Positions 12,463 to 14,051 of a DNA stretch of 26,042 nucleotides are shown in pieces. This DNA is from a virus. Lineage: Duplodnaviria; Heunggongvirae; Uroviricota; Caudoviricetes. How positions within the stretch are numbered: position 1 is the stretch's first letter; every line of letters begins with the position of its first letter. A program made the translations under genes and the position numbers. Below the pieces are notes generated by a model that had not been told where the DNA came from, did no database searches, and saw only the letters and a list, made by a program, of their open reading frames with translations. The stretch is from the IMG/VR virus record IMGVR_UViG_2724678986_000024, positions 1 through 26,042 of that record; one strand, given 5' to 3'.

Positions 12463-13893
12463 CTAGACTTTTAGCCGCTGAAGATCTCTTAGATACCATT
12501 GGTGAAACTTGCTGAAGTCAGCCTTCTGTTTCTCTACCGTGCTTTTATAGATCGCATCACTGGTAACCGCACAAGCAGTCCAGCCAGCCTCATAGACGAA
12601 GCGAGTAGCTATCGGTGACTTCTTCGGGGTGCTATCCCAGCGGTTTTTGAGCCACCGCGCAAGCCCTTCATCAAGAGGGACAACCAGATTTAGCTGCTGT
12701 TTTGTGCGAGTGATACCGACATAAAACAGCCGACGTTCCTCCTCGATTACCTCTTCGGTCGGAGGGGTGTTCATCGATGTGCGAACGCTGTAAACATCAT
12801 CGGGTTTGCCGCCAGGAAATTCCTGCTCATTCAGCCCGACCAGTATTACGTTATCCCACTCCAGCCCCTTGGAACCATGCAGTGTGGAAAGGATGAAGGG
12901 ATCGCAGTCAGTTGCAGCCTCGCCTGGATTCAAGATAAGGTTTAAAAACGTGCGGGAATCGATCTTACTGGAGACAAGTAGCTCCTCGATCCTCTTGACC
13001 CCTCGTTGCTGGTCGTTCGATCCAGTGCGAGTTACACCCTCAGAGCCAACACTATCAATGAAACCCTCCATACGCAGGCGTAGTAACACATCGATAGCAG
13101 GCGTTTCCTCTCCGTCTTTCTGGCAGATAGTGGCGAGCCTGCCCAGCCGATCTTTTTGGTTTTGTGCGCCCTCGAATAACTGGCCTAGAGCAGACCATAG
13201 GTCGGCGTGCGGAGCCATCAATCCACTGAGCGCCGCTTTGAATTGCCCTTTCTGCCAGCTAAAACCAGCCTCCTTCAGAAAGCCGTAAACAATCGCTTGT
13301 TTGTTGGGATGGTTTTCCAGTAGCCGCAGATCGCCGTACACAGACAGCAAGACGCCAACTACCAGTATCCCGATTTCAGTGCGGGTGTGTAATGCGCTTG
13401 AACCATTGAGGTAGCGATAAGGTAGCCCACACAGGCGTAAAGTAATTTCCGCCTCAGCAAGGTTCGCCTTAGTGCGGGACAATATGGCTTGTGTTCCACT
13501 GCTCACCGAGAGGTTTGATAGCACCTTGGATAGGCAGTTATCAAAGTGCAATCTGACCTCTGTTTTGGGGGTGCTAGGATGACTGACACAAAGCTTGGTC
13601 AGCTTTGTAGAGTTGCGCCGAATTACCGAGTTAGCCATCAAGGAAAGCTCATGGCCAAATCTGAACGTGCATGACAGTTGAAACACCTTCGTATTCGGGT
13701 AGTGCTTTTCAAACAGTCCGCCGATAAAGTCTGGTCGAGCACCACGCCACTCATAAATACACTGGTTAACATCACCAACAGCCATAACTGACGTATCCGA
13801 CTTAGATAGCAAGCGGGTCATGTCATGCTGTATCAGGTTAACGTCCTGATATTCATCAACAAGGATTTTTAACCCTTTTTCAGTCTCTGACAA
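12463..13893 (-). CDS. UvrD/Rep-family helicase lacking the N-terminal Walker A region (probable truncation)
   Basis: Motifs II (VDEYQD), III (GDVNQCIYEWRGA), V (HGSKGLEWDNV) and VI (YVGITRTKQQL) present; no motif I. TTG start with in-frame stop 12 nt upstream; only 157 bp separate it from the integrase gene. Confidence 0.65.
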   Translation of the reverse strand: MSETEKGLKILVDEYQDVNLIQHDMTRLLSKSDTSVMAVGDVNQCIYEWRGARPDFIGGLFEKHYPNTKVFQLSCTFRFGHELSLMANSVIRRNSTKLTKLCVSHPSTPKTEVRLHFDNCLSKVLSNLSVSSGTQAILSRTKANLAEAEITLRLCGLPYRYLNGSSALHTRTEIGILVVGVLLSVYGDLRLLENHPNKQAIVYGFLKEAGFSWQKGQFKAALSGLMAPHADLWSALGQLFEGAQNQKDRLGRLATICQKDGEETPAIDVLLRLRMEGFIDSVGSEGVTRTGSNDQQRGVKRIEELLVSSKIDSRTFLNLILNPGEAATDCDPFILSTLHGSKGLEWDNVILVGLNEQEFPGGKPDDVYSVRTSMNTPPTEEVIEEERRLFYVGITRTKQQLNLVVPLDEGLARWLKNRWDSTPKKSPIATRFVYEAGWTACAVTSDAIYKSTVEKQKADFSKFHQWYLRDLQRLKV

Positions 13894-14051
13894 TCTAAGG
13901 CTCCTTTATTAACAAACGCCCATTTGCAAACTGCTGTTTAATCTGAAAAAACATTCATAATCATACAGATAACAACATAACCATTTAGACGGGCAATACT
14001 GAAAAATTGTTATTCAGTATCGCCCTTTAAGCCGTTTCAGGCTATATAAAA

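Follow-up and report, generated by a model that had tools for sequence, protein, structure and literature searches.

Why does a temperate phage carry, directly beside its integrase gene, a helicase ORF that begins just before motif II and has no Walker A half? We addressed this in a window of 26,042 nt, positions 1 to 26,042 of the IMG/VR record IMGVR_UViG_2724678986_000024, and all coordinates given here are those of the window. Two outcomes had been put forward in the original prediction: either the phage had integrated within a helicase gene, or its arrival had deleted the 5′ part of that gene.

We found that the window joins two replicons. Positions 1-13862 are the backbone of an IncHI2 conjugative plasmid, and from 13856 on the sequence is a P88-like prophage (Xuanwuvirus, P2 family). 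The phage has almost certainly integrated via Int-mediated conservative recombination at a secondary attachment site, which lies within the motif II codons of a helicase gene of the IncHI2 plasmid. The features of the region are collected in Table 1.

A plasmid helicase gene and a P2-like prophage

The segment 11000-13866 is 99.9% identical to many large plasmids of E. coli, Salmonella and Enterobacter, and these matching plasmids are typed as IncHI2A, MOBH and conjugative. What the phage has entered is an IncHI2A conjugative plasmid and not a chromosome. The hsdM relic and the HipBA and HNH genes near the helicase are normal IncHI2 backbone, found also in plasmids without the phage; in the prophage-free plasmid pCAU16175_1, where the locus coordinate plus 4999 gives the window coordinate, the hsdM relic is annotated as a frameshifted partial pseudogene. 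To the left of the helicase, the backbone span 7193-10426 holds a HipB-like/HipA toxin-antitoxin pair (7193-7489 and 7494-8819) and an HNH_2 endonuclease gene (9611-10426), and TerD and vWA-TerF tellurite-type genes (3068-4309) lie further left.

The prophage-free IncHI2A relatives carry an uninterrupted helicase gene of 2040 nt, which encodes a 679-aa protein named 'ATP-dependent helicase' (WP_032192809.1), and the portion retained in the window is 99.9-100% identical to these intact plasmids as far as the junction. The intact protein has the sequence AVPGSGKTT near its N-terminus, and its residues 8-606 align with D. radiodurans UvrD (4c2u), the VDEYQD of one falling on the motif II VDEYQD of the other. 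Because it stays below every NCBIfam equivalog cut-off, the plasmid helicase is not an orthologue of UvrD, Rep, PcrA or HelD.

The window holds instead a 476-aa ORF. As originally predicted, it starts on TTG and has helicase motifs II to VI but no Walker A, and both the ORF call and Pfam agree: the UvrD-helicase match covers profile positions 215-264 of 271 alone (the C-terminal quarter), UvrD_C is matched with E = 3e-19, and the ORF lacks Walker A/motif I (GxGKT) as well as the N-terminal half of domain 1A. The motif II VDEYQD, together with GDVNQCIYEWRGA, TLHGSKGLEW and YVGITRT, gives the ORF the motifs II and III-VI of SF1 UvrD/Rep/PcrA-like helicases. An in-frame stop 12 nt upstream of the TTG is present as described (TAA at 13906-13908). 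The ORF does lie close to the integrase gene, but at 158 bp, not 157 bp, the integrase stop codon being at 14052. Furthermore, the ORF does not abut the phage arm as had been thought; it spans the junction, which falls inside it at 13856-13862.

From 13852 rightward the window matches Xuanwuvirus phages and the free attP. The prophage part is 96% identical to phage PhiR44_2 and has 92.5% nucleotide identity over 84% with Citrobacter phage Shae_phiSM (PhiSM). Its genes include int, a C-type repressor, cox, gpA, parM and portal, with the portal protein present in 866 blocks, and a chromosomal twin of the phage, ETEC1706, is 100% identical over 4.6 kb by BLAST. In one chromosomal twin (L028:5814-9077), a tail-fibre and invertase block (Resolvase plus Collar-domain) adjoins portal where terminase and capsid genes are expected, which suggests a large internal rearrangement or deletion in that prophage. 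Separately, the prophage encodes ParM/StbA-like and Plasmid_stab_B partition proteins (22567-23842), and a 34,461-bp circular 'plasmid' record, pZ1323PEC0009-2 (NZ_CP148288.1), is essentially the whole genome of this phage type; because of these proteins and this record, there are hints that such P2-like phages can persist as episomes.

Table 1. Positions of the features at the junction of plasmid and prophage, and the basis on which each was assigned
Feature	Position	Strand	Basis
hsdM N-terminal relic	11559..11781	+	ordinary IncHI2 backbone, unrelated to the phage event
Hybrid ORF, 476 aa, TTG start	12463..13893	-	phage leader MSETEKGLK in frame with helicase from motif II to the C-terminus
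UvrD-like helicase gene of IncHI2, 3′ two-thirds (motifs II-VI)	12463..13855	-	plasmid DNA
Hybrid 17-bp att core ATCCTTGTTGATGAATA	13850..13866	-	16/17 against the published PhiSM attB
7-bp crossover (overlap) stretch, plus strand TCAACAA, gene sense TTGTTGA	13856..13862		four-way comparison of attL, attB*, attP and pdxB attB
Phage-derived first codons of the ORF, TTG at 13891-13893	13863..13893	-	same sequence in free-phage attP (L004) and in chromosomal pdxB lysogens
P′ arm of the attachment site	13863..14081 (at least to 14081)		97.8-99.8% identity to attP of P88_4B11, Shae_phiSM and pZ1323PEC0009-2
Shine-Dalgarno AAGGAG, 7 nt upstream of the TTG, phage-supplied	13901..13906	-	sequence; same element in PhiSM (PMC6456863)
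Inverted repeat, 16-nt arms, holding the dyad TACTGAA-N9-TTCAGTA	13991..14025		repeat search; conserved in free-phage attP
P2-type tyrosine integrase, 334 aa in public records, 339 aa as mechanical ORF	14052..15071	-	Pfam Int_N and Phage_integrase
Two direct repeats CGTGGACACT, 11 nt spacing, P2-type Int arm-binding kind	14061..14081	+	inside the int 3′ end
Immunity switch	15153..15874		annotations of near-identical prophages
C-type repressor, annotated gene 106 aa	15153-15527 (mechanical ORF)	-	near-identical prophages
cox	15587-15874	+	Pfam Phage_Cox

The exact 476-aa protein is present on at least 24 public contigs. As its ORF is clean, is preceded by a strong ribosome-binding site and is publicly annotated as 'ATP-dependent helicase', it could be taken for a natural short helicase-like gene, or for one half of a naturally split helicase, that lies beside a prophage. 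However, its start, ribosome-binding site and first nine codons come from phage attP, and chromosomal lysogens carry the identical sequence fused to pdxB, with this TTG annotated as the start of pdxB. Furthermore, this integrase is immediately upstream of the 476-aa form in six of the six places listed, and the prophage-free plasmids have the 679-aa form, so that the shorter form was not encountered in a relative free of the prophage. We consider a natural short gene extremely improbable. The phage-derived TTG, AAGGAG and nine leading codons of the ORF are the cassette that restarts pdxB at the normal site of integration. RefSeq treats pdxB inconsistently in such lysogens, with either the phage TTG start (385 aa, L005:1388-2545) or an internal ATG (370 aa, L006:1385-2497). 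The halves of the split helicase similarly bear the names of ordinary helicases.

The phage arm itself is more extensive than first described. The stretch 13894-14051, proposed as the attL arm, is indeed the phage P′ arm, but the arm begins at 13863, within the first codons of the ORF, and extends into the 3′ end of int, at least as far as 14081. Likewise, the dyad is real but lies at 13997-14019, not 14007-14029. The larger inverted repeat around it may bind a protein or may mark where the int transcript ends; the terminator reading of the dyad was set aside, as no terminator-like site was scored in a consensus scan, and the same scan found no convincing promoter or terminator in the phage arm. 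The direct repeats within int match in kind the repeats TGTGGTCA/CGTGGACA on the opposite phage arm. The P2-type Int arm-binding consensus is tgTGGaCa (PMC3448106), and the locus has direct repeats on both arms with a P2-type integrase beside the site, as in P2-type arm binding.

The far prophage end and the missing helicase half

We predicted the reciprocal proteins as helicase residues 1-215 followed by the tail encoded by each known phage arm, and searched for them by exact look-up. Two were found. The P88_4B11-type tail EENNSGLIF occurs in HFY4797171.1 (P0087), which shares a Salmonella contig of 231,747 bp with the 476-aa protein (L011). The tail DEKNDDLIN, from the ETEC1706 twin, occurs in WP_058157702.1 (P0101), whose longest contig, of 105,437 bp, is the same as that of L010 (JBICHI010000018.1), to which the window is 100% identical. 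Exact look-up found twelve alternative tails to be absent from the collection. Scans of IMG/VR for the predicted attR, attL and attP returned nothing useful, and a homologue search with the helicase N-terminus returned unrelated fragments only, the attR fragments being hidden in a 1197-member full-length cluster.

The attR DNA was retrieved from both the 231,747-bp contig (L019) and the 105,437-bp contig (L034). The gene order is the same on the two: a CoiA_N-like gene, the helicase 5′ part, the core, and the phage P arm (ogr side), with a core-to-core distance of 36.2 kb on the window's contig and 37.5 kb on the Salmonella contig. The original prediction had pointed to this prophage end as the place to look, and it is found on the same contig with the missing Walker A half and the shared core. 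There the 5′ part forms a 224-aa hybrid ORF that contains AVPGSGKTT, and when this part is joined to the 3′ part in the window, the intact gene is recovered at 2040/2040 bases. Because the two halves rebuild the gene base for base, the event was a conservative site-specific recombination in which no DNA was deleted.

These data also decide between the two outcomes proposed at the start. Within the 26-kb window no Walker A half is visible, as would be the case if the arrival of the phage, or a later rearrangement, had deleted the helicase 5′ part and left a relic beside int. Yet attR does contain helicase sequence: the 5′ part is intact about 36 kb away, in the hybrid ORF at the other prophage end of the same contigs, and no base is lost or gained on rejoining. 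We give a deletion next to no credence; integration within the gene is what the halves show.

Could the junction be an assembly chimera, in which a plasmid contig was joined to a chromosomal prophage through a short repeat? The shared identity is only 7-11 bp, and the junction is in no finished genome of two curated collections, both of which such an artefact would explain. Against it, the same junction recurs in NCBI and Logan assemblies made independently, on at least 24 contigs in all, single contigs of 105 kb and 232 kb carry both reciprocal junctions, and a 7-bp repeat is far below assembler k-mer sizes. A chimera is hardly conceivable on this evidence, and we retain Int-mediated integration into the plasmid gene. 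The odd 'half helicase' is fully explained, with both junctions found and the crossover narrowed to 7 bp. For annotation, this means that records such as WP_249528877.1 ('ATP-dependent helicase') and WP_058157702.1 stand for pieces of a gene that a prophage has split, and not for genes proper.

The attachment core and its resemblance to the pdxB site

On the plus strand, the uninterrupted plasmid site (attB*) reads ...GATATTCA TCAACAA TGATGTGC..., the free-phage attP reads ...ATTTTCC TCAACAA GGATTTTTAACCC..., and the window reads ...GATATTCA TCAACAA GGATTTTTAACCC..., with TCAACAA common to the plasmid site, the phage attP and the pdxB attB. Because the window, compared base by base, consists of the plasmid left flank and the attP right flank, strand exchange is placed within TCAACAA, at 13856-13862. 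In the reciprocal junctions (L019 and L034) mismatches directly flank these 7 bp, and in the second lineage, that of the Salmonella contig, mismatches on both sides bound the strand-exchange region; the overlap length of 7 bp is deduced from flanking mismatches and presumes no mismatch correction. The hybrid att core is the sole match in the window at three or fewer mismatches, against a chance expectation of 0.09 from shuffles.

The normal target of this integrase is chromosomal. We found 311 copies of it in complete E. coli genomes, all of them chromosomal and none on plasmids, and pdxB adjoins the integrase in every chromosomal copy whose flanks were read, as well as in 10 listed matches annotated with pdxB beneath. 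The empty K-12 site, ...ATTTTCA TCAACAA GGATTTTCAC, is formed by the first pdxB codons, M-K-I-L-V-D-E-N. For PhiSM, the attB was shown experimentally to be the 17-bp sequence ATCCTTGTTGATGAAAA, located 6 bp into pdxB (Magaziner et al. 2019, PMC6456863). PhiSM supplies a TTG and an AAGGAG that read into pdxB, and its lysogens remain prototrophic; furthermore, in C. rodentium it inserted mid-gene elsewhere, in a traF-domain gene (PMC6456863).

The helicase codons H-I-I-V-D-E-Y (ATCATTGTTGATGAATA) match ATCCTTGTTGATGAAAA at 15 of 17 positions, with the central TTGTTGA perfect, and the reading frame across the core is the same in the helicase and in pdxB. Because the helicase and pdxB both encode I-L/I-V-D-E, the mimicry of the attachment site is a by-product of this coding in both proteins.

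We propose the following course of events. A temperate P88-like phage, whose normal site is the first codons of chromosomal pdxB, would have met the plasmid, and its Int, which would catalyse the recombination here as well, would accept the helicase codons because 15 of 17 bases agree and TTGTTGA is intact. Integration split the gene, leaving the Walker A half, behind its CoiA_N-like operon partner, at the far end of the prophage and the motif II-VI half beside int. The ribosome-binding site and TTG of the phage arm, which normally restart pdxB, now stand ahead of the 3′ half, which is fused in frame to nine phage codons, because the arm carries both elements and the two targets share the same frame across the core. 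By analogy with the restart of pdxB in PhiSM lysogens, the 3′ fragment is probably translated, into an ATPase-dead product. The split separates motif I from motif II within domain 1A, so neither fragment is expected to be an active helicase, and the function would be lost. Excision would be expected to restore the gene, as it does in silico.

Next, we surveyed the pdxB core in 80 species representatives of the Enterobacteriaceae. For Escherichia, those listed (ruysiae, albertii) match all 17 bases of the core in pdxB. In the listed representatives of Salmonella, Enterobacter and Klebsiella, and in most of those of Citrobacter, the pdxB core is ATCCTCGTTGATGAAAA or worse, with a mismatch inside the 7-bp overlap. 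Tyrosine recombinases need homology in the overlap, as established for lambda Int. In hosts with such a mismatch the plasmid site may be the better target, because its 7-bp overlap is perfect and that of pdxB is not.

Probable repeated use of the site and its consequences

The two contigs represent two lineages of the insertion. The two are near-identical in plasmid sequence, with 3 nt differing over 10.6 kb next to attR and 3 nt over 11.4 kb next to attL, and their prophages are 2-12% different and carry different cargo. The far phage arms diverge from the first base beyond the 7-bp core. Next to these arms, one lineage has VasI-like and RES-domain genes (L019:10790-13361) and the other a TM2-domain gene (L034:10854-11150); P2-like phages have a known variable cargo spot near ogr/att, and the differing far-arm cargo fits this.

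Because the far arms differ from the core outward on near-identical plasmids, the site has probably been used more than once, in at least two Int-mediated events. The alternative is a single ancestral integration, followed by homologous recombination of the resident prophage with a related phage to give the second variant. P2-like prophages are mosaic, and the int side, about 98% identical between the lineages for several kb, could host crossovers. However, homologous exchange is unable to swap sequence right up to the core, and here the far arms differ from the first base after it, beside plasmid flanks with 3 nt of difference over 10.6 kb. We regard a single integration as unlikely, and favour repeated use of the site. 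The insertion is nevertheless called rare, because it is in no finished plasmid of PLSDB (797 records matched the junction query, nearly all via the helicase part) and in no RefSeq complete E. coli genome; it is seen only in draft or Logan assemblies.

What is split by the phage, perhaps in a former defence island as the original prediction suggested, is the second gene of a conserved two-gene cassette. The helicase gene overlaps its upstream partner by 4 bp; the partner encodes 328 aa whose CoiA_N match stays below threshold, and its place is beyond attR, outside the window (L034:9018-10675; L038:7001-10029; L039:7001-10038). Halomonas and Vibrio have the cassette too, in neighbourhoods that vary and that include DndB, WYL and further genes of mobile or defence type. 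The pair may constitute a nuclease-helicase system that is as yet uncharacterised, and the literature searched holds no direct report of a CoiA-UvrD defence system. The best PADLOC profiles of the helicase are of the GajB type and of an RT-associated helicase (E = 1e-51). The helicase resembles Gabija GajB and other defence-associated UvrD-like helicases in its best profile score and in belonging to a compact two-gene cassette. Unlike Gabija, it has no GajA (OLD-family ATPase-TOPRIM) partner, and its own partner is without a meaningful PADLOC match: the overlapping upstream gene gave no GajA match and only weak DruB hits (E = 4e-4), and Gabija was rejected.

Prophages that interrupt a gene and restore it on excision include Listeria phi10403S in comK and, in Bacillus, SPbeta in spsM and skin in sigK. 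The helicase gene is similarly split by conservative recombination, and precise excision would rebuild it, in silico at 2040/2040 bases; unlike those systems, the site here is rare and looks accidental. Phage P2 has secondary attachment sites, among them locII, locIII and others in E. coli K-12 and C. The present case is like these in that a P2-family Int acts on partial core identity, with tgTGGaCa-type repeats on both arms (PMC3448106), but it differs in its core and its primary site, and here the mimicry comes from shared I-L/I-V-D-E codons in frame. The closest parallel is PhiSM at pdxB and in the traF-domain gene, which shares the genus, the integrase type, the core (16/17 in the hybrid) and the TTG and AAGGAG cassette, and is a precedent for a mid-gene landing outside pdxB (PMC6456863). 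The alternative site of PhiSM was, however, reported as an identical attB on the chromosome (PMC6456863), whereas the site described here is a degenerate 15/17 match in helicase motif II on a conjugative IncHI2 plasmid.

That P2-family phages integrate at secondary sites is already known, and the canonical site and the restart cassette have been published. The literature searched holds no direct report of an IncHI2-borne P88/P2-like prophage, and the plasmid site, its explanation by coding mimicry, its repeated use and the location on a conjugative resistance plasmid are apparently unreported in that literature.

These results indicate that a coding motif such as I-L/I-V-D-E can accidentally copy a phage attachment site. 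They also show that a P2-like prophage, to all appearance complete, is carried by conjugative IncHI2 resistance plasmids in E. coli and Salmonella, a route of spread that does without the phage receptor. A bolder proposal, which we hold tentatively and consider rather doubtful as a whole, is that the helicase motif II codons of IncHI2 plasmids are a recurrent and functionally relevant alternative landing site for pdxB-targeting P2-like phages, preferred over pdxB in the hosts with a mismatched overlap, with conjugative travel of the phage and a reversible switch-off of the cassette. If this were true, the phage could travel by conjugation on a multidrug-resistance plasmid, and a conserved CoiA_N-like and UvrD-like cassette, perhaps a still uncharacterised module of defence or plasmid maintenance, would be reversibly switched off by its presence.
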